IMG/VR virus record: IMGVR_UViG_3300049027_000072
Coordinates: 1-64,000 of that record
Strand: one strand, 5' to 3'
Length of the DNA: 64,000 nt
From: a virus
The notes under the pieces were generated by a model that saw only the letters and a list, made by a program, of their open reading frames with translations, searched no databases and was not told the DNA's origin. Positions 1 to 64,000 of the stretch are shown here, one piece after another. The translations under genes were made by a program, and so were the position numbers. Within the stretch, counting starts at the first letter, position 1. Every line of letters starts with the position of its first letter.

Positions 1-1506
1 GAATACAACGTGCTGCGTGCGCCGGGCAAGTACCGGATGACGATCGGCTCAAGCAACACGCTTTCCAGCCTCTACAACACCTGGCTGCAGGTGGAGAACG
101 CCACGTGGGGCGACGGGCTCGCATGGAACCAGGGCGACCCGATTCTTGGTAACCCGCCGACGAGCGGCTACCTGACGACCGGGTTCGCGGACGGCAACTG
201 GGCTCACGTGCTGGGCGCACTGTCGTTCGCGGTGGACCACGGAGCTACCGGCGCACAGGCCGCCTACGACAGGCTAACCTCGGCCAGCAACTGGGCCACG
301 AACGCCGCGTACTTGCACGACACACCGGAGTACGCGGTCGTGCCGCGCGTGCCGGCGTGGTACGGCTTGCAGACCACCAACACATGGAAGAACCTCGGGG
401 CATCCTGGCTGTCTGGCATCGGGCCAAGCCTGCCAGGCACGACCCTCGCCAACGGACAGACGCAGGTGGAGCCGAACGTCGGGGTGTTCAGCTACTCCGG
501 CGGCGCGCTGAACAACAAGTCGTTCTACGACAGGACCGGCTTGCGCCTGTACGGAGCCGCGATGTTCGTGTGGGGCGGCGGGCACCAAGCCTACGGCGGC
601 AACGAGATGGATGGGTTCCGGCTGTACGACCAGACGTGGTACCGGTCCAGGGCTGCCTACCCCACGCCGCTCAAGAGCACGAACGAGAATCCAGACGGTA
701 CGCCAGTCAGCCGGCACACCTATTCAGCGTTCTGCTGGATCGCATCGAAGAACTGGTTCTTCTCGCCGGTGACAGGTGCCAGGTACGCCGACGCGGGGGA
801 GGGCAGCCACTACAGCCATAGGTTCGACTGCACATACTCTGCGCCCAATAGCACCGGCCCTGGTCCGTGGACGCGAAACCCTGACCTGCCGGACCTTGGT
901 ATGTCGGGTGGAGGCATCTACTTCTTCGGGATGCTCGCGTGCTACGACTCGGACAACGACCGCGTCGTGTGCTTCCAGCCCGGTCCGCACAGGGCCGTCT
1001 ACTACAACCCGAACAACACCGCGGCGCCGTGGACGGTGCGCGGCATTGACCCTGGCACGTACTCCTACACCGACCGCGGTTCGATCGTGCACATCCCAGG
1101 CAAAAACTGGTGCGTGTTCCACCTGCCGCCGACCGGAAGCGACAAGAGCGGCCTGCTGGTAGTGGACATGAACTCGGACAACCCGGTGAACGTGATCCAG
1201 ATGGTCACGTCCGGCAGCCCGCCCAGCGCCAGCACTGCGCAGGGCTTGGCATGGGACTCGCGCAACGGCCGCGTGGTGGCTTGCGACAAGAACGGGAATC
1301 TGCGCGCCGCACAGCCGCCGGCCACCGTGGGTGGCACCTGGAACTGGATAGCCCTGACCAACACGGGGGGCGATACGCCTGACAGCCAGGCGTGGTCCGG
1401 CGAGGGCGTCTGGGGCCGCTTCGGCTACGTCAACGATGGTGCGCTACATGGCTACGTCCTGGTGGCCGGGCCGAACACCAGACCCTGCTTCTACAAGCTC
1501 GGCTAA
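1..1506 (+). CDS. Structural-region protein, 5' partial at the window edge; possible beta-propeller (Kelch-like) glycan-binding protein
   Basis: Frame 1 is open from nt 1, with no stop before the listed Met at 10, and ends TAA 1504-1506. A hairpin terminator follows. Recurrent GG...W/Y strand-like segments suggest a propeller, but this is unverified. Confidence 0.55.
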   Translation, partial: EYNVLRAPGKYRMTIGSSNTLSSLYNTWLQVENATWGDGLAWNQGDPILGNPPTSGYLTTGFADGNWAHVLGALSFAVDHGATGAQAAYDRLTSASNWATNAAYLHDTPEYAVVPRVPAWYGLQTTNTWKNLGASWLSGIGPSLPGTTLANGQTQVEPNVGVFSYSGGALNNKSFYDRTGLRLYGAAMFVWGGGHQAYGGNEMDGFRLYDQTWYRSRAAYPTPLKSTNENPDGTPVSRHTYSAFCWIASKNWFFSPVTGARYADAGEGSHYSHRFDCTYSAPNSTGPGPWTRNPDLPDLGMSGGGIYFFGMLACYDSDNDRVVCFQPGPHRAVYYNPNNTAAPWTVRGIDPGTYSYTDRGSIVHIPGKNWCVFHLPPTGSDKSGLLVVDMNSDNPVNVIQMVTSGSPPSASTAQGLAWDSRNGRVVACDKNGNLRAAQPPATVGGTWNWIALTNTGGDTPDSQAWSGEGVWGRFGYVNDGALHGYVLVAGPNTRPCFYKLG

Positions 1507-1572: not shown

Positions 1573-2337
1573 TTGGCATACACCCTCAAGACCACTGGTA
1601 TCGCGACCAAGCTGATTGCCTGCGTCGCGGTCGACGAGGACGGCACCACCGTCAAAGACTTCGTCAGCGGTAACTCCATTACCCACAACGCGTCGATCGC
1701 CGCGCCGAGAACCGGCACGTCGGCGTGGAAGGGAACGACGCGCGGCACATTCAAGACCGACTACGGCGCGGACGTGTTCTCGCCGCGCGGCGTGCTGTGG
1801 AACGCCACGCAGCCAAGCATCCCCATTGGCAACGGCGGGAACGGGATCAGCTTCTTCGTCGCGGTCGCTTCGCTGACCGATTCCAGCAACCAGTACCTGT
1901 GGCAGCTGTCCACCGATGTGAACAACTGCGTGAAGTTCGACGGCACGAACCACCCGGTCATGCGCACCGGCGCCACGGACCAAGGTGCCGCGACCACCGC
2001 ATGGTCCACCGGGACGAAGTTCAGCTTCGGCCTCAACTGCAAATACAACACGTCGGGGAACCCGTTCTATTACGGGCTGGAGTCCGGCTCGCTCGCTGCC
2101 GACGGGACCTTCAACGAAGGTGGCTTCGGTGGCACCGGTCCGCTGAACCTGTTCGGCGGGGCGTCCGGTAACGGCTCATGCCGCGGCAGCTACCACATCG
2201 CCTGCTTCTTCTCGGACTCGACGCTGCTGACGCTGAGCGAGTTCCAGAGCCTGCATAACGACTGGTTCGGCACGCTGTTCGAAGCGCCCGCGGCGACGCA
2301 GAACGCGGCCGCGATGCTCAGCGGCGTGGGCCGCTGA
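1573..2337 (+). CDS. LamG/concanavalin-like lectin-fold protein (putative)
   Basis: 254 aa with a TTG start 7 nt after the GAAGGG motif. The C-terminal ...CRGSYHIACFFSDSTLLTLSEFQSLHNDW resembles the terminal strand/helix of Laminin-G_3 domains. Confidence 0.55.
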   Translation: MAYTLKTTGIATKLIACVAVDEDGTTVKDFVSGNSITHNASIAAPRTGTSAWKGTTRGTFKTDYGADVFSPRGVLWNATQPSIPIGNGGNGISFFVAVASLTDSSNQYLWQLSTDVNNCVKFDGTNHPVMRTGATDQGAATTAWSTGTKFSFGLNCKYNTSGNPFYYGLESGSLAADGTFNEGGFGGTGPLNLFGGASGNGSCRGSYHIACFFSDSTLLTLSEFQSLHNDWFGTLFEAPAATQNAAAMLSGVGR

Positions 2338-2850: not shown

Positions 2851-3315
2851 ATGGCTGACAACTTCACCACCAACGCCGGCTCCGGCGGCAACACCTTCGC
2901 GTCAGACGACGTGAGCAGCGTGCAGTACCCGCGCGTGAAGCGCTCGCTCGGCCGCGACGGCCAAGCGGCTGACTGCGGCACGCTGTACAGGTTCGCCAGC
3001 GCGGCCAGCACGAACACCACCAACGTCAAGGCCTCGGCTGGCGCGCTGTACCTGATCACAGCGGTGAACCTTAACGCAGCGGTGCGTTACCTCAAGCTCT
3101 ACAACAAGGCCAGCGCGCCGACGCTGGCCAGCGACACGCCGGTCATGACTCTGCCCATCCCCGGCAACACGGCGGGCGCCGGCTTCGTCATTCCCATCGA
3201 GTGCGGGGCGGACTTCTCCACCGGCATCTCATTCGCGATCACCACCGGCGCAGCAGACAACGATACTGGCGCTATTGGCGCCAACGAGGTCTTCTTGACC
3301 CTGTCGTACGTCTGA
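2851..3315 (+). CDS. Unknown virion-region protein, paralog B of a tandem pair
   Basis: 154 aa beginning MADNFTTNAGSGGNTFASDDVSSV..., with the shared motifs AAV.YLKLY.KA..PT...DTPV and the terminal YV. Confidence 0.7.
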   Translation: MADNFTTNAGSGGNTFASDDVSSVQYPRVKRSLGRDGQAADCGTLYRFASAASTNTTNVKASAGALYLITAVNLNAAVRYLKLYNKASAPTLASDTPVMTLPIPGNTAGAGFVIPIECGADFSTGISFAITTGAADNDTGAIGANEVFLTLSYV

Positions 3316-3335: not shown

Positions 3336-4463
3336 GTGTCCTACGCAGCGCCGTTTCCGCACATCGGCCTGAACCTTCAGGCCGCCAATGTGCTCGCCGC
3401 CGACGGCGGGACCATTTCCGTCTCTGGGCAGGCCGCGGCGCTCCGGTGGGGCCGCTTGCCGCTGCTTGCGGCGCAGGGGACGTACTCGCTGTCAGGCCAA
3501 GACGCGGCGCTGACGGTGAGCCAACGCGGCTCAAGTCGTTCCCCAGCGCCGTTCCCGCACTTCGGGCTGTTGCTTGGAACAACCCAGGCTGGGCAGACCG
3601 ACGGGGGTGCCTATTCGGTCACCGGTGTATCGGCCATCCTGCGCAAGGGGTACGCGCTATCAGCGACGCCGGGCAGCTACGTGGTTGTTGGGTCGGACGC
3701 CATCCGTGATTTCGAGATCCGGGCCGATGTCGGCGTCTACAACTCAGTGGGCTTCGCCGCGGCGGGCGTTTTCGGCCACAAGCTCACGGCTGGTGCCGGC
3801 GCCTACGCCGTCGCCGGTCAGGCAGCGATGCTACGCCGAGGGCCTGCTCCATTGGTTGCGGCCGGGGCGGCGTATGAGGCGGCGGGGCAGGTGGCAGGTG
3901 TCCGCGTCGGGCGCCGAGTCACGGCGGTTGCCGGCGCCATCGTGGTGACGGGGGTGGCGGCCAGCCTGCGCAGGGCTAAAGTATTGATCGCCGGTGCGGG
4001 CAGCTATGCCTACACCGGGAACGCGGCGAACCTCGTACAGCTGGGGCAGCAGGACTACGTCATTACCGCGCAGACTCAGAGCTACGCGGCCACTGGCTAT
4101 TCGACGGCGCTGAGGGCGACCCGTGCGCTGCGCGCCGACGCGGGGACCATTACTGTCGCAGGTCAGGTTGCTGGCCTGCTCGTGCCTCGCCGGCTGCAGG
4201 CCGACGGCGGGACCTACGCGCAGTCTGGCACCAGTACCCGCCTTTCCTACGGCCGCTTCGGGCGCTCAGACACGACCACGTACACGGTGACGGGTTTCCA
4301 GGCCGGGCTGTCTCGCTCCTCAGCAGTGCTCGCAGCGGCAAGCAGCGCGATCACCGTCACTGGCTTCGCGGCCGTCTTGCGGCGCGGATCGAGCGTCGAT
4401 CCGTCCGAGGACCGAACGATCTACCTGCCGCCCGAGGTCCGCAGCGTCTGGGTCAACCCCTGA
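3336..4463 (+). CDS. Tandem-repeat protein (about 13-14 copies of a 21-22-aa unit)
   Basis: 375 aa with a GTG start. The recurring unit is L.A..G.Y.V.G..A.L.RG, for example GTISVSGQAAALRWGRL, GAYAVAGQAAMLRRG and SAITVTGFAAVLRRG. The motif APFPH(I/F)GL occurs twice. Confidence 0.7.
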   Translation: MSYAAPFPHIGLNLQAANVLAADGGTISVSGQAAALRWGRLPLLAAQGTYSLSGQDAALTVSQRGSSRSPAPFPHFGLLLGTTQAGQTDGGAYSVTGVSAILRKGYALSATPGSYVVVGSDAIRDFEIRADVGVYNSVGFAAAGVFGHKLTAGAGAYAVAGQAAMLRRGPAPLVAAGAAYEAAGQVAGVRVGRRVTAVAGAIVVTGVAASLRRAKVLIAGAGSYAYTGNAANLVQLGQQDYVITAQTQSYAATGYSTALRATRALRADAGTITVAGQVAGLLVPRRLQADGGTYAQSGTSTRLSYGRFGRSDTTTYTVTGFQAGLSRSSAVLAAASSAITVTGFAAVLRRGSSVDPSEDRTIYLPPEVRSVWVNP

Positions 4464-4507: not shown

Positions 4508-4527
4508 GTTTGACGCGAGGGGCAGCC

Positions 4528-4869
4528 ATGGCCACAGACGGGAACGCCATTACGACGTCCAGTACCGGACGCAAGAGCGCCATCAAGGACCCGAATTCGA
4601 CGCTCGACTACAGCTGGGATTGGCGTGACTGGCTGGCGCAGGTTGGCGATTCGATCGTCACGGCGACGTTCATCGTTACCGACCCAGAAGGCGCGACGAC
4701 GCCACTCGTGGTCGCGTCCAGCGTGCACTTCGATGGGATGGTGACGGCGTTCGTCTCTGGTGGCACGGTGGGCAAGACCCACAAGCTGACGTGTCGCATC
4801 ACGACCAACAGCACACCCACGCCGCGGACCGATGACCGCAGCCTCTACATCATCATCCGGGAGCGTTGA
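4528..4869 (+). CDS. Conserved structural-module protein of unknown function
   Basis: ATG at 4528 lies 7 nt after GAGG. The listed TTG at 4510 sits inside the terminator tail. 113 aa. Confidence 0.65.
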   Translation: MATDGNAITTSSTGRKSAIKDPNSTLDYSWDWRDWLAQVGDSIVTATFIVTDPEGATTPLVVASSVHFDGMVTAFVSGGTVGKTHKLTCRITTNSTPTPRTDDRSLYIIIRER

Positions 4870-4871
4870 AC

Positions 4872-5396
4872 ATGGCACTCGTGGTTGAAGATGGCTCTGG
4901 CAAGGCCACGGCAGAGAGCTACTGCTCTGTCTTCTTCGCCGACGACTACCACCTGGCGCGCGGGCGCGACGAATCTTGGGCGCAGCTGGACGACGACCTC
5001 AAAGAGCAGTACTTGCGCGCGGCCAGCGACTACATGCTCCAGGAATACCGCATGCGCTGGGCCGGGTATCGAAAGACGAGCACTCAGGCGCTCGACTGGC
5101 CCAGATATGCGGTGCCCATGCGCGACGCGCCGTCTGGCGCCTACTTCGCGTACTACGACAGCGACACCGTGCCGGATGAGGTGAAGCGCGCGTGCGCCGA
5201 GCTGGCCTTTCGCGCCAAGGACGGGACCCTGACCCAGGATCTCGGGGCGCAAGTCGAAAGCAAGACGGTAGGCCCGATCACGGTGAAGTACGCGCCGTGG
5301 GCGCGCGAGACGAAGGTGTACCAGGCCATCGAAGGCATGTTGCGGCCCATGTTCAAGGGCGCAGGGCAGTCGGCGGCGGTGGTGGTGCGGCGGTGA
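4872..5396 (+). CDS. Head-tail connector/adaptor (DnaT-like ssDNA-binding-fold family)
   Basis: ATG at 4872 with GGGAG upstream. Motifs are ...ESYCSV..AD.Y...R.....W......KE..L..AS.YM...Y..RW.G.......Q.L.WPR, typical of phage head-tail adaptors. Confidence 0.65.
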   Translation: MALVVEDGSGKATAESYCSVFFADDYHLARGRDESWAQLDDDLKEQYLRAASDYMLQEYRMRWAGYRKTSTQALDWPRYAVPMRDAPSGAYFAYYDSDTVPDEVKRACAELAFRAKDGTLTQDLGAQVESKTVGPITVKYAPWARETKVYQAIEGMLRPMFKGAGQSAAVVVRR

Positions 5397-5884
5397 AAGT
5401 CCGCCATTCAGAGCAGCCGGTGCCGCGCTGCTTCGCAGGCCACCCGGCAGGCAAGGGCCTTCTCGGGGAGTGCGACATCCGGCTATGCGGGGCAGGGCGC
5501 CTTCGCGCGAAGTTGCTCGTGTTCAACGGGCCTGTGGCGCTACGCCGCTTTTGGCGTGACGCGCTGGGCCGCAACGAGTTGGGCCGCCACACAGCTGGGG
5601 CCGTGTCAGCATTGTCATACGAGCGGATCAACGTAACGACCGGCGCGAGTGTCATGGTGGTCGATCCGCGCTACTTCTGCGTGATTGGTCTCACACGAGA
5701 CAACCTCAGCATGGAGGTGATCACCCATGAAGCGGTTCACGCTGGATTCGCGTATGCCAAGAGGGTCCAGAAGAACTTGTGGGCCGGCGCGGATGAGCTA
5801 GACGAGGAAAACGTCTGCTATCCGGCAGGGCGCATCGCGGCCGCGATCAACAGTTTCCTTCACGACCAAGGGCTCTACCGATGA
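5393..5884 (+). CDS. Small putative zinc metallopeptidase-like protein (HExxH)
   Basis: GTG at 5393 overlaps the previous stop (GTGA). 163 aa containing VITHEAVHAGFAY. Confidence 0.5.
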   Translation: MKVRHSEQPVPRCFAGHPAGKGLLGECDIRLCGAGRLRAKLLVFNGPVALRRFWRDALGRNELGRHTAGAVSALSYERINVTTGASVMVVDPRYFCVIGLTRDNLSMEVITHEAVHAGFAYAKRVQKNLWAGADELDEENVCYPAGRIAAAINSFLHDQGLYR

Positions 5885-6258
5885 GCTTCTATGCCGAGAT
5901 GGCTGCCACGGCGGCCGAGCTCATTGCCGAGTTCGGGGCCACGGGCGAGATCACTGAGCGTGCGACCGGTACCTACGACCCCGCAACGGGAAGGGCGCCG
6001 GTGGTCGAGACCGCCCACCAGGTCGTTATCGCGATCTTCGACATGCCGGAGCGGCGCATCGACGGAACCCGCATCCTCACCGGCGACAAGTCCATCCTGC
6101 TGTCCACCAAGAAGCCTGACGGCACGGCTCTGGCGATCACACCGAAGCCGGACATGAAGCTGACGGATGCCGCGGGGACGGTCTACACGGTCATCAACGT
6201 CAAGCCGCTGGCGCCAGCACTGACGGCCGTGCTCTGGGAACTGCAGGCGAGGAAGTGA
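5881..6258 (+). CDS. Head-tail joining / head-closure protein
   Basis: ATGA overlap with the previous gene, 125 aa, positioned between the adaptor and the gp10-like gene. Confidence 0.6.
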   Translation: MSFYAEMAATAAELIAEFGATGEITERATGTYDPATGRAPVVETAHQVVIAIFDMPERRIDGTRILTGDKSILLSTKKPDGTALAITPKPDMKLTDAAGTVYTVINVKPLAPALTAVLWELQARK

Positions 6259-6641
6259 TGACGGCGACCTGGAGCATCCCCATCGACCGGCTCGCCGAGA
6301 AGGCGAAGGCCGACATCGACACGGTGACGCGCAAGGTGACGTTGGACCTGTTCAGCGCCGTGGCGCGCCGCAGTCCGGTGGACACCGGGCGCTTCCGCGC
6401 CAACTGGAACGTGAGCCTGAGCAGCCCTGACACGACCGTCACCTTCAACACGAACCAGGGCCGAATCACCGCCGAAGTTGGCAAGGCCGCCTCTTTCCAG
6501 AGCGGCAGCGTCGTCTACATGGTCAATGCTCTCCCTTACGCGCGGCGCCTGGAATACGGATGGTCGAAGCAGGCGCCACAGGGCATGGTTCGCCTGACGG
6601 TCCAAGAGTTCAAGCAGTACGTGGAGCGCGCCGTCAAATGA
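6255..6641 (+). CDS. HK97 gp10-family tail-completion protein
   Basis: Motif RRSPVDTGRFRANW, ATGA overlap, 128 aa. Confidence 0.7.
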   Translation: MMTATWSIPIDRLAEKAKADIDTVTRKVTLDLFSAVARRSPVDTGRFRANWNVSLSSPDTTVTFNTNQGRITAEVGKAASFQSGSVVYMVNALPYARRLEYGWSKQAPQGMVRLTVQEFKQYVERAVK

Positions 6642-7051
6642 GCCACGCACTGATCCGCCAGGCGCTGGAGTCCACGCTCAGTGCCTGGGCTGATGCGCAG
6701 TCGCCGGCTATCCCCGTCTCGTGGCAGAACGTCCCATTCACCCCACCGACAGGGCGCTACCTCCAAGCCTTCGTGCTGCCCGCGCGCACGGTGAGCGAAA
6801 CGCTTGACGGCACTCATCGTCGATACACGGGCCTGTTTCAGGTGTCGATCGTCATGCCCATCGATGTCGGCCCCGGTGACGCGGAGGCCATCGTGGCGTC
6901 GCTCGACGCGCTCTACCCGCTGAGCACGCCCATCACTGTAGGCGCGCTGCGCGTCTACATGACCGAGCCCATGAGTCCTGCGCCCGCGCTGCAGCGGGCA
7001 GACCGATACGTGATCCCGGTGACCGGCGCCTACCGCTGCGACACCGTCTGA
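6638..7051 (+). CDS. Tail terminator-like protein (DUF4128-like)
   Basis: ATG at 6638 overlaps the stop at 6641. 137 aa, lying directly upstream of the major tail gene. Confidence 0.6.
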   Translation: MSHALIRQALESTLSAWADAQSPAIPVSWQNVPFTPPTGRYLQAFVLPARTVSETLDGTHRRYTGLFQVSIVMPIDVGPGDAEAIVASLDALYPLSTPITVGALRVYMTEPMSPAPALQRADRYVIPVTGAYRCDTV

Positions 7052-17727: not shown

Positions 17728-18042
17728 ATGAACGACCAGCACGCAAATAACGAGCAACGCCTTGCTGACATCGACAAGCGGTTGGACCGTGGCGCCGCAC
17801 GCATCGCTGAGTTGCAGATGTCGGTCGCCGAACTGCAGCGCGAGATGCGCGAGAACACCGCAATCACCACCGAGGTCCGCGATCTCCTGCAGCTGGCACG
17901 CGCAGGCCTGCGTCTGCTTGGAATCGTCGGCAATGTCGTCCGGTGGGTCGGCATGGTTGCCGGCGGTGCTATCGCGATCTGGGGCGCGTGCTATGCCGTG
18001 TGGTACGCGGTTACGCATGGCGGTCATCTGCCGCCGAAGTGA
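17728..18042 (+). CDS. Coiled-coil membrane protein of the lysis cassette (holin or lysis regulator candidate)
   Basis: ATG at 17728; 104 aa with an N-terminal coiled coil and a C-terminal hydrophobic segment LLGIVGNVVRWVGMVAGGAIAIWGACYAVWYAV. Confidence 0.5.
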   Translation: MNDQHANNEQRLADIDKRLDRGAARIAELQMSVAELQREMRENTAITTEVRDLLQLARAGLRLLGIVGNVVRWVGMVAGGAIAIWGACYAVWYAVTHGGHLPPK

Positions 18043-18050
18043 AGCCCGCC

Positions 18051-18659
18051 ATGATCACGATCGCGTCTCTGGTAGCTGCAGGCGTCAAGCCGACTCAGGC
18101 ACGACTGTTCGCCGAGCCGCTGCGCGCCGCGTGCGCGCTGTTCGACATCGCAACGCCGGCCCGCGTTTCTGCCTTCCTCGGGCAGTGCATGCTGGAGTCG
18201 AAGGCCTTCACCGACACCGAGGAAGACCTGTACTACCGCGCCCCTGAGCGCGTGCTCGAAGTCTTCGCCGGGCGTGTCACAAGCTTGGCGCGCGCTGCCC
18301 AGCTTGCGCGGCACCCGAAGGTTCTGGCGAACACGGTCTACGCCGGCGTGAACGGCAACACGGACCCTTGCGACGGCTGGCTTTACCGTGGCCGCGGGCT
18401 GATCCAGCTGACCGGCCGGGCGAACTACCGCGAGGCCGGGGCAGGGACCGGCCGCCCCTATGTCGACCAGCCCGACCTGGTGGCCGAGCCGTCCGATGCG
18501 TGCCTGTCGGCAGCTTGGTACTGGCACGCCCGCGGCCTCAACACGCTCGCCGACACCTGGCAGATCGATGCCATCACGAAGGCCGTGAACGGCCGCCGGA
18601 TGCTGCATGCCGACCTGCGCCGGCAGTACAGCGAACAGGCCCTGCACGCCCTGGCATGA
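18051..18659 (+). CDS. Endolysin, glycoside hydrolase family 19 (chitinase-like lysozyme)
   Basis: Motifs FLGQCMLESKAF and LYRGRGLIQLTGRANY; 202 aa. Confidence 0.8.
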   Translation: MITIASLVAAGVKPTQARLFAEPLRAACALFDIATPARVSAFLGQCMLESKAFTDTEEDLYYRAPERVLEVFAGRVTSLARAAQLARHPKVLANTVYAGVNGNTDPCDGWLYRGRGLIQLTGRANYREAGAGTGRPYVDQPDLVAEPSDACLSAAWYWHARGLNTLADTWQIDAITKAVNGRRMLHADLRRQYSEQALHALA

Positions 18660-55549: not shown

Positions 55550-56980
55550 ATGCCGGTTGACTCGCAACACGCAGACTTCTCTGCCGCCTTGGCGCGCTGG
55601 GAACGCGCCCGTGACGCGGCCGCCGGCCAGGATGCCGTGCACGCCAAGGGCGCGCGGTACCTACCGAAGCTGGCAGAGCAGACGGACACGGAATACGACG
55701 GATACAAGTGCCGGGCGCTGTACTACAACGCCACGGGCCGCACGGTGGACGGGCTGACCGGACTGGTGTTCCGCCGCGAGCCTGCCGTCGAAATCCCGGA
55801 CGCGCTGGACTACCTGCGCGAGGACATCGATACCTGCGGTACGCCGCTGCTGGCCTTCTCCGAGAAGGTCGTGGACGAGCTGCTCACGGTCGGTCGCCTG
55901 GGCCTGCTGGTGGACTACCCGCCGCTGCAGACTGCACGCACCCAGGCCGAAGAGAAAGCGGCCGGCGGCCGGCCCTACATCAAGACCTACTGCGCCGAGT
56001 CCATCATCAACTGGCGCGTGCAGCGCGTGGGCAATCGCAACATGCTCACACTGGCCGTGCTCAAGGAGCAGGCCGAAGAGCGGGATGACGATTACACGGT
56101 CAAGATGGCCGACACATGGCGTGTGCTGCGCTTGGCGGATGGCGTCTACACCCAAGAGCTCTGGCGCAAGAACCCGAATAAGCAGGACGAGTTCATCCTG
56201 GTGGATGGTTACCCGGTCACGCCGCTCATGGGCGGCAAGCCGATGGACTTCATCCCCCTGCTCATCTGCGGCCCCATGGGCGTCGATGCGTGCGTCCAGA
56301 AGCCGCCGATCCTTGACCTGGCGGACGTCAACATCTCGCACTACCGCACGACCGCGGACTACGAGCACGGGCTCCACTTCACCGGGTTGCCAACGCCCAT
56401 CGTCACCGGCCACCAGTTCTCTGATGGCGAGACGTTTGCGCTGGGCAGCACGACCGTCAAGGGGTTCCCGAATCCGGACGCGAGGGCCACCTTCCTGGAG
56501 TTCCAGGGCACCGGGCTCACCCAGCTGTCCAAGCGGCTGGACGAGAAGGAAGCCATGATGGCTGCCCTCGGCGCGCGCATGCTCGCCGCCGAGAAGCGCG
56601 CCGCAGAGGCGGCTGAGACGGCAGCGATCCACCGGGCAGGCGAAAACAGCGTGCTCGGGTCGCTGGCCAATGCAGCCAGTGCAGCGATCAGCAAGGCGCT
56701 GAACTGGTGTCTCCAGTGGGCTGGGGTGCAGGCTGAGGCGAAAGTCGAGCTGAACACCGACTATCTGCCGACCGGCCTGAGCGCCCAGGAAGTGACGGCG
56801 CTGGTTGCTGCGTGGCAGGCGGGTGCGATTTCGCACCGTACCTTGCACGACAACCTATTGCGCGGCGAGGTGGCACGCCAAGGCGTGGACTTCGACGAAG
56901 AGAAGTCGGAGATCGAGAGTGAAGGGCCGAAGCTGGGCGCGATGGAGGATCCGGCGGCTGGTGGTAGCGGCGGGGCCTGA
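55550..56980 (+). CDS. Portal protein (DUF4055-type)
   Basis: 476 aa between terL and the MuF-like gene; its N-terminal region resembles DUF4055 portals. Confidence 0.75.
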   Translation: MPVDSQHADFSAALARWERARDAAAGQDAVHAKGARYLPKLAEQTDTEYDGYKCRALYYNATGRTVDGLTGLVFRREPAVEIPDALDYLREDIDTCGTPLLAFSEKVVDELLTVGRLGLLVDYPPLQTARTQAEEKAAGGRPYIKTYCAESIINWRVQRVGNRNMLTLAVLKEQAEERDDDYTVKMADTWRVLRLADGVYTQELWRKNPNKQDEFILVDGYPVTPLMGGKPMDFIPLLICGPMGVDACVQKPPILDLADVNISHYRTTADYEHGLHFTGLPTPIVTGHQFSDGETFALGSTTVKGFPNPDARATFLEFQGTGLTQLSKRLDEKEAMMAALGARMLAAEKRAAEAAETAAIHRAGENSVLGSLANAASAAISKALNWCLQWAGVQAEAKVELNTDYLPTGLSAQEVTALVAAWQAGAISHRTLHDNLLRGEVARQGVDFDEEKSEIESEGPKLGAMEDPAAGGSGGA

Positions 56981-58746
56981 TGGCCGGTTCCGTCAACGAG
57001 CAGCTGGCCGAGGCTGATGTCGGCCACCAGGTCGACCTGCATCAGTACGCCAACGGCGTCGTTCGCAAGCTCATTGCTCTGCTGAACCGCACCGACGCTG
57101 ACCTAGCGGCGCAGATCGCCGCGGCGCTCGAGCGCATGTCCGCATCCGCATTCACCGTCGAACGGCTTGAATCGCTGTTGGCATCGGTACGCAGCTTGAA
57201 CGCCCAGGCGTACGCCGTGCTGCACAAGGAGTTGGAAGGCGAGTTGCACGACCTCGTCGAGTACGAGGCCGGCTACCAGCTGCAACTGTTCCGCTCGGTG
57301 ATCCCGCCGCAGGTGGTGCTCGCTGTCGGGGTCGATACGGTCAGCATCGACCAGGTTTATGCCGCCGCGATGTCCCGGCCGTTCCAGGGGCGGCTGCTCA
57401 AGGAATGGGCGGCCAGCCTTGAGACAGGGCGGATGGCGCGTATTCGCGACGCGATCCGCATCGGCTACGTCGAGAACCAGACGATTCCGCAGATCGTCCA
57501 GCGCATTCGTGGCACGCGGGCGAAAAGCTACGCCGACGGCTTCCTGGAGACAGATCGCCGGCATGTCGAAGCGGTGGTGCGCACAGCCATCAGCCACACG
57601 GCGAACTTCGCCCGAAACAAGTTCTACGAGGCGAACAGCGACCTGATATCGGCCGTGGTCTGGACGTCTACCCTTGACGCCAGGACCAGCGAGCCGTGTC
57701 GGCTGCGTGACGGCAAGCGCTACGACGCAGAGACACACAAGCCGATCGGGCACAAGCTGCCATGGGGCGGCGGGCCCGGGGCGTTCCACTGGTGCTGCCG
57801 GTCGGTGGCCACGCCAGTTACGAAGTCCTGGCGAGAGCTGGGGCTGGACATTGAGGAGTTCTCACCGGCGACCCGCGCCAGCATGGATGGCCAGGTCCCG
57901 GCAGACACCACGTACGGCGAGTGGCTGAAGAACCAGTCCACAGCCAGGCAGGACGAGATCCTCGGGCCCGAGCGTGGCGCGCTGTTCAGGCAGGGAAAGC
58001 TGCCGCTGGATCGTTTCGCCAACGACCGCGGCAAGTGGCTTTCGCTGGACGAACTGCGGGAGAGAGACGCCAAGGCCTTCGAGCGCGCCGGGCTGGACAA
58101 TCCGATGCGAGCGCCACGCGGCCAGCCGCAAGATGAGATCGCCCGCTTCCTGGCGTCCAAGCCCGACCAGAGGGAACTGCTCGACCGCCTCTACGCCGCC
58201 GAAGGCGACCGGCTGTCAGATCACATGGCGCTGGTATCCAAGGTCAAGGCGGAGCAGGAGTACCGATCGACAGAGGAATCCCTGGCGGCGGTGCGCTACT
58301 ACACAGGGTCCGGGTACGCGGAGGTCAACCGACGAATGCGTGAGTCCGGCGGCACGCTGGAAGATCGCCAGTTCACGGCCCTGACGGCATCGGCCCTGCC
58401 CGGGATGAAGCCGTACCATGACGAGGTGTGGCGGTCGCCGACGACGCGAAAGGCCAATGCCGACAAGTGGTGGGACAAGGCCACCGTGGGCGAGCCGATG
58501 GACATCGGGAACCAGCTGCAGTCGTTCAGTGCGTCGGCCAACATGGCGGCGCAGTGGGCGATGAAGGGTGACGTACTGCTGAGAATTGCCAAGCCCAGAG
58601 GCGGCGCTTACATTGCCCCGGTGTCACAGCACGACACCGAGAAGGAAGTGCTGTTGCCGCCTGGGCAGAAGTACCGTGTGGTCGGGAAGTCGGTCAAGAC
58701 GGTGAACGGGCGCGAGATGCGCGTGATCGACCTGGAGATCGAGTGA
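56980..58746 (+). CDS. Head morphogenesis protein (Mu F / SPP1 gp7 family) fused to a C-terminal ADP-ribosyltransferase domain
   Basis: MuF motif TSTLDARTSEPCRLRDGKRYD. The ART R-S-E triad is YYTGSGYAEVNRRMR, QSFSASANM and DTEKEVLLPPGQKYRV. Confidence 0.75.
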   Translation: MAGSVNEQLAEADVGHQVDLHQYANGVVRKLIALLNRTDADLAAQIAAALERMSASAFTVERLESLLASVRSLNAQAYAVLHKELEGELHDLVEYEAGYQLQLFRSVIPPQVVLAVGVDTVSIDQVYAAAMSRPFQGRLLKEWAASLETGRMARIRDAIRIGYVENQTIPQIVQRIRGTRAKSYADGFLETDRRHVEAVVRTAISHTANFARNKFYEANSDLISAVVWTSTLDARTSEPCRLRDGKRYDAETHKPIGHKLPWGGGPGAFHWCCRSVATPVTKSWRELGLDIEEFSPATRASMDGQVPADTTYGEWLKNQSTARQDEILGPERGALFRQGKLPLDRFANDRGKWLSLDELRERDAKAFERAGLDNPMRAPRGQPQDEIARFLASKPDQRELLDRLYAAEGDRLSDHMALVSKVKAEQEYRSTEESLAAVRYYTGSGYAEVNRRMRESGGTLEDRQFTALTASALPGMKPYHDEVWRSPTTRKANADKWWDKATVGEPMDIGNQLQSFSASANMAAQWAMKGDVLLRIAKPRGGAYIAPVSQHDTEKEVLLPPGQKYRVVGKSVKTVNGREMRVIDLEIE

Positions 58747-60619: not shown

Positions 60620-61789
60620 ATGGGCACTCTGACTCTTACCTCTCTCATCCCCACCATCTACAACGCGATGGACGTTGTGTCGCGCGAACTGGTGGGGTTC
60701 ATCCCCGCCGTTTCGCGTGATTCGAGCGCTGAGCGTGCTGCCGTCAACCAGAGCGTCATGTCCCCGGTGGTCGGCGCGATGACCGCCGAGGATCTGACGC
60801 CTGCCGCATACGCTGCGGATACGCCGAACCAAACGATCGGCAACGTCGAGATGAAGATCACGAAAGCGCGCTCGGTGCCGTTTGGCATCACCGGCGAGGA
60901 ATCGCTGGGGCTGCGCACCGCCGGCACGCTCGGCGTCGTGAATCGGGATCGCATCGCGCAGGCGCTTCGCACGCTGACGAACGAAGTTGAGGCCGACCTG
61001 GCGGCCCTGCACATTTACGCGTCGCGCGCATACGGCACCTACAACGCGACCCCGTTCGGCACCGCGGCTGACTTCACGGACTTCTCGAACTCCCTGAAGA
61101 TCCTTGACGACAACGGTGCTCCGCTGAGCGACCGCCAGATGGTGCTCGGCTCGGCTGCCATCTCCAATATCCGCGGGAAGCAGAGCGTGCTGTTCAAGGC
61201 GAACGAAGCCGGCACCGACGAGATGCTGCGCCGCGGCATCGTGGGCCAGGTGGAAGGGTTCGACATCCACAACTCCGCTCAGGTTAAGACCGCTGTGACT
61301 GTCGGCACCGGCGCTTCGGCGACGACGAACACTGCCGGTTATGCGGTCGGCGCAACGACGATCACTCTGGCGTCCGCCGGTACGGGAACGATCATCGCCG
61401 GGGACATCATCACGTTCGCCAATGACACGAACAAGTACCTCGTGGTCACCGGCGATACCGACGTCTCCAATGGTGGCACCGTTGTGTTGGCCGAACCTGG
61501 GCTGCGGCAAGCGCTGCCGGCGTCTGCGGTTGCGATTACGGTCGTGGCGGCAACGACTCGCAACATGTTCTTCCACCGTTCGGCGATCCAGCTCGCCACA
61601 CGCGCTCCGGCCATGCCGGAAGAAGGTGACGCAGCGGATGACGTGATGATGGTCACCGACCCGGTTTCAGGCATCAGCTACGAGTTCTGCGTCTACAAGC
61701 AAAAGCGCCAGGTGCGCTACGAAGTGAACCTGGCATGGGGTGTCAAGGCTGTCGCCACCCGCCACATCGGCCTGCTGATCGGCGCGTAA
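60620..61789 (+). CDS. Major capsid protein (P22 coat-like family)
   Basis: 389 aa after the scaffold gene. The N-terminal LTSLIPTIYNAMDVVSRELVGFIPAVSRD resembles P22-type coat proteins. Confidence 0.75.
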   Translation: MGTLTLTSLIPTIYNAMDVVSRELVGFIPAVSRDSSAERAAVNQSVMSPVVGAMTAEDLTPAAYAADTPNQTIGNVEMKITKARSVPFGITGEESLGLRTAGTLGVVNRDRIAQALRTLTNEVEADLAALHIYASRAYGTYNATPFGTAADFTDFSNSLKILDDNGAPLSDRQMVLGSAAISNIRGKQSVLFKANEAGTDEMLRRGIVGQVEGFDIHNSAQVKTAVTVGTGASATTNTAGYAVGATTITLASAGTGTIIAGDIITFANDTNKYLVVTGDTDVSNGGTVVLAEPGLRQALPASAVAITVVAATTRNMFFHRSAIQLATRAPAMPEEGDAADDVMMVTDPVSGISYEFCVYKQKRQVRYEVNLAWGVKAVATRHIGLLIGA

Positions 61790-62106: not shown

Positions 62107-62529
62107 TTGGCTGCGTACAACAAGTTCAATGCGTTCGTCGAGAACCAGCTCATCAGCAAGATCGACTGGGACGCCGACACCTTCAAGGTCATGCTCACCA
62201 ACGTCGCCCCGGTGGCGACGAACTCGCTGAAGGGCGACCTCACCGAGATTTCGGCGGGCAACGGCTACACCGCCGGCGGCACGGCCACCACGATCACGCA
62301 TTCGCGTTCGTCTGGTGTGTCGAAGGTCACCGGCACCGACGTCGTGTTCACCGCCACGGGCGGTTCGATCGGTCCCTTCCGCTACGCGGTGCTGTACGAC
62401 GACACCCTCTCGTCTCCGGCCAAGCCGCTGATCGCATGGTGGGACTACGGCTCCAGCATCACGCTGGCCGACACGGAGACGTTCACGGTCGACTTCGACG
62501 CTGCCAACGGCATCTTCCAGATGTCGTAA
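62107..62529 (+). CDS. Virion-region protein of unknown function
   Basis: 140 aa with a TTG start after the cassette (MAAYNKFNAFVENQL...). Confidence 0.6.
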   Translation: MAAYNKFNAFVENQLISKIDWDADTFKVMLTNVAPVATNSLKGDLTEISAGNGYTAGGTATTITHSRSSGVSKVTGTDVVFTATGGSIGPFRYAVLYDDTLSSPAKPLIAWWDYGSSITLADTETFTVDFDAANGIFQMS

Positions 62530-62553
62530 GGCGCCCGGCCGCAGCAGTACCTC

Positions 62554-64000
62554 ATGCCCCGCCGTCTCCGCATTGGGCACGCAGGCCGTCGCATATTCGC
62601 GGCGAGCGGCCTCTACGTCCTGGCGGGGCGGGACGCAACTCTGCGGACTGGTGTTTCGACACGAACGCTCTCGGCAGCGTCGGGGACCCTCAATGTTTCC
62701 GGCCAAGCGGCGGCGCTGCGCCCCGGGCGCCTCATGTTGGCAGCTGGTGGAACGTACGGCATCGCGGGCCAGGCGGCAGCAGAGCGGCGCGGCCGGACGA
62801 TCTCAGCTGCAACCGGCGCCTACAACGTTACCGGCATTGCCGCCACGCTGGTGCAGGGTTCGCCATGGTCGTCCAGCGCTACGTGGGGAGGGCCGCCTCC
62901 CGGGGATGGTGAGAACGTCACCATTCCGTCCGGGGCGTCCTACATCCTCGACACGGACACGGCCAACCTCGGGCTGATCGTCATCCCGGCTGGGGCGACG
63001 CTGAAGGTCGACATGACCAAGCCCAGCCTCACGCTGAGGGCGAAGGGCATCGTCGTCGACGGCGGGAAGTTCATCTTCGGCACGAGGGCCGCGCCATACA
63101 CCGGCACGCTGATCATCGAGTTGGACGGCCAGCCGGTCGTGAATTCGATCGTCGGCCCGTCGCACCGGGCGGCGGATGTGCCGACAGGCAACCCGAACGA
63201 CGCATACCTGGGCTACGACGGCGCGTCGCGTGGGTTCCTGAACATCAACGGCGAGGTCAGGATCAACGTGGCCAAGGCTTCGGTCTTGCGTACGTTCCTG
63301 AACGCGAATTCGGCAGCTGGTGCGACCTCACATACGACCGAGGACTCAACCAACTGGCCAGCGGGTTCGAATGTCCTGATCGGGCCCACGGACTACTACG
63401 CCAACTCGCAGTCCGAGGTACACACGTTGGCTGCGGCAGCCAACGGCACGGCGATCCAGACCTCCGCGGGGCTTGTCACGGCGCGCTGGGGGCAGCTGCA
63501 GTACATCACCGACGCGGGCATGAGCTTGACGCCGGGGACCTACACGCGCTGGACGAGTGCGAGCGGCGCAGAGTTCCCGGCGAACACCAGCATGCCGACC
63601 ACGCTGGACGAGCGAGCGGAAGTAGCCCTGCTGGACCGCCGGGCGATCATCCGTGCGCCGAACGACACCGCCTTCCAGCAGGACAGGTTCGGTGTGCACG
63701 TGATGGCAATGGGCTCAGGCGCCATCACCGAGCTCGACGGCGTCCTGATCCACCGGTGTGGGCAGGGCGGGCGCCTGGGTCGGTACCCGTTCCACACCCA
63801 CATGCAGTCGTGGGCGTCCACGGGGCAATTTCTGGGTGCGGTCCATACCGACAACCGCGTCGAAGACTGTGTCGTCTGGCAGAGCTGGAACCGGGGGATC
63901 ACGCTTCACGGCAGTGTCGGTTTCAAGGTGCTCAACTGCGTCAGCCACGACACCCGCGGGCACAACCTGTTCTTTGAGGACGGGTCGGAGCGCCTGAACA
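62554..64000 (+). CDS. G8-domain / right-handed beta-helix glycanase-like protein with an N-terminal 22-aa repeat region; 3' partial
   Basis: It is not in the supplied track because no stop lies inside the window. I translated by hand from ATG 62554 to nt 64000 and found no stop. G8-like segment: WSSSATWGGPPPGDGENVTIPSGASYILDTDTANLGLIVIPAGATLKV...KGIVVDGGKFIFGT. Further on: GRLGRYPFHTHM and NRGITLHGS. Confidence 0.75.
   Translation, partial: MPRRLRIGHAGRRIFAASGLYVLAGRDATLRTGVSTRTLSAASGTLNVSGQAAALRPGRLMLAAGGTYGIAGQAAAERRGRTISAATGAYNVTGIAATLVQGSPWSSSATWGGPPPGDGENVTIPSGASYILDTDTANLGLIVIPAGATLKVDMTKPSLTLRAKGIVVDGGKFIFGTRAAPYTGTLIIELDGQPVVNSIVGPSHRAADVPTGNPNDAYLGYDGASRGFLNINGEVRINVAKASVLRTFLNANSAAGATSHTTEDSTNWPAGSNVLIGPTDYYANSQSEVHTLAAAANGTAIQTSAGLVTARWGQLQYITDAGMSLTPGTYTRWTSASGAEFPANTSMPTTLDERAEVALLDRRAIIRAPNDTAFQQDRFGVHVMAMGSGAITELDGVLIHRCGQGGRLGRYPFHTHMQSWASTGQFLGAVHTDNRVEDCVVWQSWNRGITLHGSVGFKVLNCVSHDTRGHNLFFEDGSERLN

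Follow-up and report, generated by a model that had tools for sequence, protein, structure and literature searches.

A G8/CEMIP-type beta-helix protein with a shared repeat anchor in a candidate fibre-docking cassette of a siphovirus-type phage

The DNA analysed here is a stretch of 64,000 nucleotides from a virus, comprising positions 1 to 64,000 of the IMG/VR record IMGVR_UViG_3300049027_000072 (hereafter the window). Our subject is a gene that begins on its forward strand at position 62554 and is cut off by the window edge at position 64000. This 5' part encodes the first 482 of 1260 amino acids (aa) of a protein that combines a G8 domain with a beta-helix of the type found in human CEMIP and TMEM2. 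The gene carries an N-terminal repeat segment in common with a second large protein of the same phage, and it stands next to genes with relatives in known or suspected phage fibre systems.

The open frame and its beta-helix product

The open reading frame (ORF) from ATG 62554 to base 64000 contains 482 sense codons and zero stops in translation, and the peptides that the original prediction had picked out by eye (WSSSATWGGPPPGDGENVTIPSGASYILDTDTANLGLIVIPAGATLKVDM, LRAKGIVVDGGKFIFGTRAAPYTGTLIIELDG, GQGGRLGRYPFHTHM and WNRGITLHGS) are all found in it. The frame had been reported as absent from the ORF track, which is indeed the case because ORFs running off the window end get no listing. Its codon-position G+C content (0.84 at third positions, GC3, and 0.55 at second positions, GC2) resembles that of the neighbouring genes and, together with Pfam scores far over their cut-offs, argues that it is coding. 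The in-frame stop upstream of ATG 62554 is the TAA of the preceding gene, and this ATG is the first start thereafter. We place the start here because the first nine residues, MPRRLRIGH, also open a second protein of the same phage and recur as MPRRLRIGF in a related phage, L008. One gene caller used ATG 62734 instead, giving a 1200-aa product; we rejected this start, as the upstream 60 residues are conserved in paralogs and relatives. No obvious Shine-Dalgarno sequence lies ahead of ATG 62554.

To complete the ORF, we located the source contig by an exact capsid-protein match, in JGI 3300071358 (68,510 bp) and in Logan SRR35218543 (68,529 bp). The source locus, L003, is 100% identical to the window over 13,381 and 3,288 overlapping bases. 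On the circular map 4,501 bp separate the window end from the window start, and the ORF closes at 1260 aa (L003:11935-15717). The frame at window positions 1-1506 is ruled out as the C-terminus of this protein, given the stop at aa 1260, a 113-aa gene and a separate 1110-aa gene. The gene upstream, which encodes a 140-aa protein, shares its reading frame with the G8 ORF, with only the TAA and eight sense codons between them (62527-62556). We judge this a coincidence because related loci use other frames or strands, and a readthrough or fusion of the two is rejected, since the corresponding genes lie in different frames in phage L005 and the next gene is on the other strand in L008.

A search with the Pfam hidden Markov models (HMMs) recovered the proposed G8 domain: PF10162 matches aa 110-193 (62881-63132) with 61.6 bits against a cut-off of 22.9 (E = 8.7e-17), profile positions 1-85 of 124 being aligned on the window part, and with 58.9 bits on the full-length protein. 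This domain forms the first turns of the beta-helix. It is followed by an inserted beta-rich region, aa 194-378 (63133-63687), which is mostly confidently predicted by AlphaFold2, has no Pfam match at E<=1 and is shorter than the insert in TMEM2; within it, aa 256-295 align weakly to TMEM2 333-371. The first part of the CEMIP-type beta-helix then occupies aa 379-482 (63688-63999), where CEMIP_beta-hel (PF24606, cut-off 27.3) scores 78.9 bits on the window part (E = 6e-22) and 97.8 bits over aa 379-492 of the full-length protein. Only positions 2-108 of the 212 in this profile align in one stretch, because two modules of about 75 aa are inserted in the helix.

These modules, at aa ~497-583 and ~640-722 (L003:13420-14100), follow the pattern HGF..G...P.GL..G..YWV.N.T.N.F.LS and are duplicates of each other (score 114, versus 32 +/- 6 for shuffles). 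One of them matches tail-fibre PHROGs (phrog_9370, E = 7e-7), and they may be extra glycan-binding modules. A GG/PANDER-type lectin-like domain gave no Pfam match, either in aa 1-482 at E<=1 or in the full-length protein at E<=0.1.

Among PDB entries, the sole relative found by sequence is the TMEM2 ectodomain 8C6I (phmmer, E = 9.5e-12). Residue-by-residue alignment of the two shows the common motifs VDMRAEV/LDERAEV, GRYPxHxH, xHG and GHxxFxEDGxExxN, and the window holds the family-invariant motifs GRYPFHTHM (63778-63804), ITLHGS (63898-63915) and GHNLFFEDGSERLN (63958-63999). An AlphaFold2 model built on 54 relatives reached a predicted local distance difference test score (pLDDT) above 90 for nearly all of aa 100-482. 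With this model as query, the top Foldseek match in the PDB was TMEM2 (8c6i_A, E = 2e-10, probability 1.0, query template-modelling score, TMq, 0.50), followed by the phage depolymerases 7W1C, 4RU5 and 4RU4 (E = 4e-6 to 7e-4, probability >=0.99). In the alignment of the 54 relatives, which are of both phage and bacterial origin, R226, D352, Y411, H414, H416, H452 and E475 are invariant, and R354, R410, H470 and E479 are near-invariant.

The predicted fold and the profile matches thus make the assignment to the CEMIP/TMEM2 beta-helix family solid. In TMEM2, too, G8 is the start of a continuous beta-helix (PMC10206443). The protein had been described as of the CEMIP/TMEM2 hyaluronidase type; Pfam, phmmer and Foldseek bear out the G8/beta-helix part of that description, whereas the enzymatic label is overstated. 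For the TMEM2 ectodomain, neither hyaluronidase activity nor an active site that could be assigned was observed (PMC10206443), which makes 'hyaluronidase' unsafe as a functional label, and the phage protein has no detected GG insert. Hyaluronan is an unlikely substrate.

A shared repeat anchor and its cassette

The N-terminal repeat region mentioned in the original prediction has a period of 22 residues by autocorrelation (z = 5.9 against shuffles). Protein alignments and this periodicity delimit a segment of residues 1-103 (62554-62862, forward strand), consisting of MPRRLRIGH and about four 22-residue repeats with the core G-x-[YF]-x-[VLI]-x-G-x-x-[AV]-x-[LF]. The anchor DNA contains no tandem repeats, so that the periodicity exists at the protein level only. 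With a pLDDT below 50 in the AlphaFold2 model, this segment is predicted not to fold by itself, and neither it nor the 375-aa repeat protein described below has a relative in the PDB.

The second protein that begins with MPRRLRIGH is 1110 aa long (L003:16056-19388), and its C-terminal 501 aa are encoded at window positions 1-1506 on the forward strand. It carries three 22-residue repeats, and its aa 1-79 align to anchor aa 1-103 of the G8 protein (BLASTP, E = 1e-9), while the bodies of the two proteins are unrelated; similarity between the two genes at the DNA level is confined to the first ~30 nt of the anchor. The 1110-aa protein has a weak match to PcRGLX_1st, a RIFT-barrel family (E = 0.0016, below cut-off), and no PHROG or PDB match; by eye, its middle appears helical and its C-terminal half propeller-like. 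By tblastn, the anchor matched repeat proteins of other phages.

A similar arrangement is seen in L012, a distant siphovirus-type genome, in which a G8 homolog of 49% identity occupies the same slot between the genes for the major capsid protein (MCP) and the head-tail adaptor Ad1. A different N-terminus, MVCVVPKP, opens three proteins of that genome: the G8 homolog, the counterpart of the 1110-aa protein and a protein of 235 aa. The 1110-aa homolog (30% identity, E = 1e-42) is encoded beside the G8 gene in L012 as well, suggesting that the two travel as a pair. On sequence grounds the N-terminal segment is thus best described as a shared anchor, with one anchor on several cargos in each of two independent anchor systems. 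This is the pattern expected of proteins docking at the same particle site, and a common N-terminal module, as in the spikes of one phage particle, is found both in this phage and, in parallel form, in L012. In L008, a close relative with an MCP of 87% identity, the 140-aa gene is followed by one for a 182-aa protein that starts MPRRLRIGF and contains repeats. This gene overlaps a 562-aa gene whose product has its own signal peptide (L008:5844-8077), which looks like an anchor and a cargo that have split or been newly juxtaposed.

The gene order around the G8 gene on the circular map is TerL (large terminase), portal, MuF ADP-ribosyltransferase, scaffold, MCP, 62 aa, 140 aa, G8 protein, 113 aa, 1110 aa, 254 aa, 155 aa, 154 aa, 375 aa and a homolog of gp77 of podophage GP4; then come Ad1, Hc1, Neck1, tail terminator, major tail protein, chaperones, tape measure, distal tail proteins and a 1459-aa J-like protein. 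The position previously ascribed to the gene, with the capsid gene on one side and, on the other, the head-tail connectors of a siphovirus-type genome that also encodes a J-like protein, therefore holds. The upstream edge of the slot is the MCP gene (60620-61789, forward strand; phrog_283, E = 8.5e-103; P22 coat-like), and its downstream edge is Ad1 (4866-5396, forward strand; phrog_477, E = 3e-46; PF20557). Judged by gene content and its recurrence elsewhere, the G8 gene belongs to a mobile cassette of fibre-docking genes that abuts Ad1. The gene had been singled out as unusual; its setting is real, but it represents one cargo of a multi-gene fibre cassette with a second anchored, enzyme-like protein.

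Immediately upstream of the G8 gene lies the gene for the conserved 140-aa protein (62107-62529, forward strand; phrog_644), a candidate 'bead' or subunit of the fibre. The protein is very abundant, with about 8000 homologs that are almost without exception ~140 aa long and occur in sipho- and podovirus-type contigs; the best 120 of these ~8000 are 62-91% identical to it. Its AlphaFold2 model (pLDDT 89) consists of a strand, a helix at residues 8-17 and a beta-sandwich, and the protein has no Pfam family, no PDB relative by sequence and no significant PDB fold match. GenBank labels homologs from Manatee Spring podoviruses as a 'general glycosylation pathway protein', a name that stems from a chance WWDYG/STT3 match; we rejected an STT3-like identity, as the profile gives merely this chance match.

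The 375-aa protein (3336-4463, forward strand) consists almost wholly of 22-residue repeats (z = 5.4), with eight strict repeat units at spacings that allow ~15 periods, and is the candidate 'rope' or scaffold of the fibre; like the N-termini of the enzymes, it is not predicted to fold by itself. Homologs are present in L001, L005, L007, L008 (41% identity over 376 aa) and L009, and it has no PDB or PHROG match. The 140-aa protein and 22-residue repeat proteins occur together wherever the full context is seen, namely in the window, L008, L009, L005, the Manatee Spring podoviruses and EBPR siphovirus 2; loci with both include L001 and L007, and a diverged version occurs in Gordonia phage GodonK. 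Both are missing from L004 and L012, where the G8 protein is without repeats. Autocorrelation detects the 22-residue period in every repeat protein from cassettes of the 140-aa type (z = 5 to 26); control proteins are aperiodic.

The last cassette gene (4510-4869, forward strand) encodes the homolog of gp77, the immunoglobulin (Ig)-like collar protein or 'fiber-tail adaptor' of GP4. PF23148 matches it with 80.3 bits against a cut-off of 27 (E = 1.6e-22), and the PDB chain 8jou_D with E = 0.0038. This gene stands directly before Ad1 in the window, in L008 (68% identity) and in L012 (28%, E = 9e-10), making Ad1 the likely docking partner of a gp77-type collar. In two actinophages, GodonK (L095, gp93-96) and Mycobacterium phage Faith1 (L096, gp22-23), a gp77-like protein is encoded beside a partner of 130-145 aa. 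The GodonK partner is homologous to the 140-aa protein, and proteins with 24/12-residue periodic repeats follow this pair; the Faith1 partner is a homolog of GP4 Fiber-1 annotated as 'head protein'. These arrangements point to an ancient collar-bead-rope module in which one bead family can stand in for another.

The 254-aa protein (1573-2337, forward strand; GC3 0.86) has no Pfam, PHROG or NCBIfam match and no relative in the fetched loci. Two tandem paralogs of 155 aa (2365-2832) and 154 aa (2851-3315), on the same strand, start MADNF..NAG.GG.TFASDDVS in translation and have no family match; homologs are found in the cassettes of L008 (74% identity) and L005. In L005, an SU10-type phage, the cassette lies between the small and large terminase genes (L005:9573-15023), an unusual site for structural genes, and comprises the 140-aa gene along with genes for a G8 protein with the N-terminus MRGFRIGH, for Disaggr_repeat and MADDF proteins and for a repeat protein of 222 aa.

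The G8 gene is immediately followed by a 113-aa gene (L003:15714-16055), whose ATG overlaps the G8 stop codon (ATGA). The same ATGA coupling to a gene of 108-113 aa is present in four loci, those of the window phage, L004, L012 and L013. The products have a signal-peptide-like N-terminus and five conserved Cys residues, are 41-56% identical among three of the four loci, and the 113-aa Cys-rich protein matches no family. That an exported protein is coupled to a putative spike assembled in the cytoplasm points to a function in the envelope of infected cells. Phage T5 provides a parallel in the lipoprotein Llp, a small exported protein encoded beside the gene for the receptor-binding protein. As with Llp, the 113-aa protein is small, exported, encoded beside a recognition gene and co-varies with it; unlike Llp, it carries a Sec-type signal with no clear lipobox, and the two have no sequence similarity. 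By this analogy one might speculate that it functions in the infected cell's envelope or periplasm, for instance to mask or modify the receptor glycan, or that it is an exclusion factor.

Relatives in phages and cells

An exhaustive HMMER search of protein cluster representatives returned 2469 relatives of the G8 protein at E<=1e-3, 152 of them at E<=1e-30. Among the best 150 of the 2469, a signal-peptide-like N-terminus is found in about 64; in about 36 the N-terminus is short, often basic, and leads straight into the G8 motif. We sampled the contexts of four relatives lacking a signal peptide (L004, L005, L012 and L013), and all are phage or phage-like: the G8 homolog of L004 directly follows an SU10-type adaptor gene, L005 is an SU10-type phage, L012 is a siphophage, and L013 is a short contig carrying the small partner gene. 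A relative with a signal peptide, L014, is in a cellular context.

In species-representative genomes we found 270 relatives, the best of them in Burkholderiales (Methylibium, Rhizobacter, Aquabacterium and Rubrivivax; 38-41% identity), with further members in Planctomycetota, Bacteroidota and Deinococcales. Signal or lipobox N-termini are present in 55 of the 70 untruncated cellular loci, and cassette or marker genes of this phage were found in none of the 80 fetched cellular loci, in a test that sees only relatives of this phage's genes. Since cellular relatives carry Sec or lipoprotein signals and the phage protein has an anchor, phages appear to have taken up a secreted or surface enzyme family and swapped its export signal for a virion anchor. 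The affinity of these relatives and a G+C content of 65% suggest that the host lineage is probably Burkholderiales.

Close relatives by DNA or by single-protein pattern were found in none of the phages, viral contigs and genomes searched, and with the 482-aa query the G8/helix part had no tblastn match in 50,697 phage genomes, in which only the anchor repeats matched. PHROGs holds no family for a G8/CEMIP-type protein, a full-text search for a G8 domain in phage turned up only work on human CEMIP, and BFVD contains a few uncharacterised viral proteins of similar fold.

Placement on the particle and possible function

The gp77 homolog provides a link to structures of phage collars. In GP4, 15 copies of the 93-aa Ig-like adaptor gp77 ring the dodecameric head-to-tail adaptor and hold the fibres (PMC11445570). 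In Bas63 and Sf14, both myophages, the interface of adaptor and head-completion protein bears a homologous Ig-like collar, and a rope carries whisker/Fiber-1 dimers 'like beads on a string', each subunit having an incomplete sandwich and a helix at its N-terminus (PMC12609058). A strand of the rope completes each Fiber-1 sandwich, and the rope of GP4 is a separate protein (PMC12609058). The GP4 genome encodes Fiber-1, a 140-aa virion protein, three genes upstream of gp77; 10 chains of it are present in 8JOU, corresponding to five dimers. The gene after Fiber-1 specifies a 325-aa protein with a 20-residue period, a candidate for the GP4 rope. The window thus resembles GP4, Bas63 and Sf14 in having a PF23148 collar homolog, a ~140-aa protein and a periodic-repeat protein in one cluster, with the collar gene adjoining the adaptor gene. 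It differs in being of siphovirus type, in a repeat period of 22 rather than 20 residues and in encoding large enzymes with rope-like N-terminal repeats, a feature that has not been described for those phages.

From these data, we consider it probable that the G8 protein is a virion-borne, polysaccharide-targeting spike carried on a repeat-based collar fibre. Its repeat segment would serve as a docking element that inserts the enzyme into a fibre made of the 375-aa 'rope' and the 140-aa protein, following the rope-and-bead principle of GP4, Bas63 and Sf14, in which an extended polypeptide is wrapped by small subunits. The fibre would be attached to the particle by a ring of the gp77-like Ig collar protein; the neck is the most likely site, the chief alternative being the tail tip. 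At contact with the host, the beta-helix would bind, and most likely cleave, a surface or extracellular polysaccharide, and its clearance would open the way to the cell surface for the long tail and its J-like tip. The second cargo enzyme may act on another linkage or glycan, and, more speculatively, the 113-aa protein may alter or mask the receptor glycan in the envelope, as in the comparison with Llp.

Several observations weigh against this reading. Both virion attachment and the site on the particle are what we infer for a phage known from metagenomic contigs alone. The likeness of the 140-aa and repeat proteins to their GP4 counterparts is analogy at best, and homology of the 140-aa protein to Fiber-1 is not supported: BLAST found nothing, hhalign gave a probability of 0.2%, and no 8JOU, Bas63 or Sf14 chains are among the top 50 Foldseek matches of its model. 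Similarly, the GP4 325-aa protein has a period of 20 and not 22 residues and is not in 8JOU by sequence. The minor-tail (tail-tip) block after the tape measure gene is where GodonK and Faith1 carry the gp77-like gene and its 130-140-aa partner; in EBPR siphovirus 2, the 140-aa gene follows the J-like gene; and the terminase-flanked cassette of L005 shows, with the actinophages, that gene position is not diagnostic of the particle site. With regard to function, no catalysis is established for any member of the family, the TMEM2 ectodomain being inactive in vitro (PMC10206443), and the protein could be an adhesin that binds only.

These points bear on the rival explanations to different degrees. 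The actinophage and EBPR siphovirus 2 arrangements, together with the uninformative position in L005, are what one might expect if the protein were a conventional side fibre or tailspike docked at the tail tip, on the J-like protein or the distal tail, and merely oddly placed in the genome. Depolymerase spikes usually act at that site, and the window contains no further fibre genes after the J-like gene. On the other side, the only solved adaptor homolog, gp77 of GP4, rings the head-to-tail adaptor (PMC11445570, PMC12609058), and in the window, L008 and L012 the gene just before Ad1 is the gp77-like one, so that we regard a tail-tip spike as unlikely. An enzyme decorating the head shell would fit a gene that comes after the MCP gene, and the capsid of phi24B is reported to be decorated by a processed esterase (bioRxiv 10.64898/2026.04.10.717836). 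However, no decoration-protein domain was found, the anchor is common to proteins in tail and adaptor contexts of other phages, and the cassette holds a fibre-adaptor homolog and not a capsid-binding module, making this the least probable of the alternatives, and a very improbable one.

The original prediction of a capsid- or neck-displayed glycanase, as opposed to a classical tailspike, is therefore strengthened for the neck by the gp77 homolog directly before Ad1, and the capsid part of it gains no specific support. Because solved gp77 collars ring the adaptor and the gp77-like gene adjoins Ad1 in three siphophage genomes, the neck is the likeliest location and, by analogy, a plausible one. 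Conditional on virion attachment, we hold the neck to be a little short of an even prospect, the tail tip possible at a clearly lower level and the capsid surface very doubtful; what remains is a protein that is unattached or located elsewhere.

A protein that is not part of the particle at all, such as a soluble enzyme released at lysis or a captured host gene (moron) whose shared N-terminus has another purpose, would be consistent with the closest cellular relatives, which are secreted or lipoprotein enzymes of Burkholderiales, and with L008, where the 182-aa anchor is separate from the 562-aa signal-peptide protein and uncoupling is thus possible. We find this improbable, as the G8 protein has no signal peptide, the gene is tightly spaced on the same strand within a late structural operon, its N-terminal module is common to different cargos in two independent anchor systems, and the G8 homolog of L004 directly follows a podophage adaptor gene. 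A closer contender is a virion-borne beta-helix adhesin that binds glycan without cleaving it. Non-catalytic beta-helix fibres are known, and TMEM2 sets a precedent within the family, its ectodomain having shown neither measurable activity nor an assignable active site (PMC10206443). Against this, the His/His/His/Glu/Asp/Tyr/Arg set is invariant across distant phage, bacterial and human sequences, as one would sooner expect of a catalytic or metal site than of a binding surface that has to track variable glycans, and TMEM2 is followed in the structural ranking by active phage lyases and hydrolases. An adhesin seems to us possible but not likely, and we retain the preferred reading of a polysaccharide-targeting spike on a collar fibre. 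A bolder extension of it, to which we give rather little credence as a whole, is that in siphophages of this lineage the neck rope-and-bead fibre is a universal socket that would display any enzyme gaining N-terminal rope repeats, here a host-captured CEMIP/TMEM2-type enzyme active via its invariant His/Glu/Asp set, with the small partner protecting progeny or blocking superinfection.

Comparison with known systems helps to define what is new. The phage protein shares with human TMEM2 (CEMIP2, 8C6I) and CEMIP/KIAA1199 a G8 domain continuous with a right-handed beta-helix and the common motifs, but has no transmembrane segment, secretion signal or detected GG/lectin domain; it carries a phage anchor as its N-terminus, and its helix is interrupted by the two ~75-aa modules. 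Beta-helix depolymerases on phage particles are a well-known kind of protein. Like the Klebsiella K1 lyase (7W1C), phi297 gp61 (4RU5) and LKA1 gp49 (4RU4), the G8 protein combines a helix body with a paralog-shared N-terminal module; unlike them, it belongs to a different beta-helix family (identity 10-12%, TMq below 0.2), has a 22-residue repeat anchor instead of a globular T7 gp17-like or XD-type one, and is encoded between head and connector genes. The Anabaena myophage A-1(L) has neck-anchored, bead-chain-like fibres with a distal carbohydrate-binding module and an extra connector ring (PMC10966104). A ring-held fibre of this arrangement at the neck is what we propose here as well, whereas the A-1(L) ring is a helical gp5 15-mer, no enzyme cargo is known there, and its fibre genes are far from the neck genes. 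We regard as new the helix family, the shared repeat-type anchor, the gp77-type collar link in siphovirus-type genomes and the coupled secreted partner.

The G8/CEMIP/TMEM2 family is medically important, and the enzymatic activity and active site of its own members are disputed. It is large in bacteria, as the cluster representatives attest, and has been recruited by phages with a residue set that is invariant as in the human proteins. A phage spike acting alone on polysaccharide would be a simple system for testing catalysis and mapping the site and, if the bolder extension is true, the phage enzyme would become the first tractable model for the disputed CEMIP/TMEM2 active site. It would add a depolymerase family to the phage repertoire, with a bearing on host-range prediction and enzyme mining. 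Additionally, the cassette would link the widespread 140-aa protein, the 22-residue repeat proteins and the gp77-type collar into an exchangeable fibre-docking system that spans sipho- and podovirus-type genomes of Proteobacteria phages, with a diverged form in actinophages. Thousands of genes now called 'hypothetical' could be annotated on this basis, and enzyme display on phages might be engineered through it.

Neighbouring genes complete the picture of the genome. Downstream of Ad1, on the forward strand (5881-7051), lie Hc1 (5881-6258), Neck1 or tail completion (6255-6641) and the tail terminator (within 6560-7051), supported by phrog_161, phrog_169 and phrog_179 and by PF04883 and PF13554. 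Among the head genes, the MuF-like head morphogenesis protein at 56980-58746 has a C-terminal ADP-ribosyltransferase toxin domain (PF03496, E = 6.7e-10) and is probably an ejected effector. Directly after the J-like gene, at 17943-18659, a protein with a GH19 (chitinase class I-like) domain is encoded, which is probably the endolysin.

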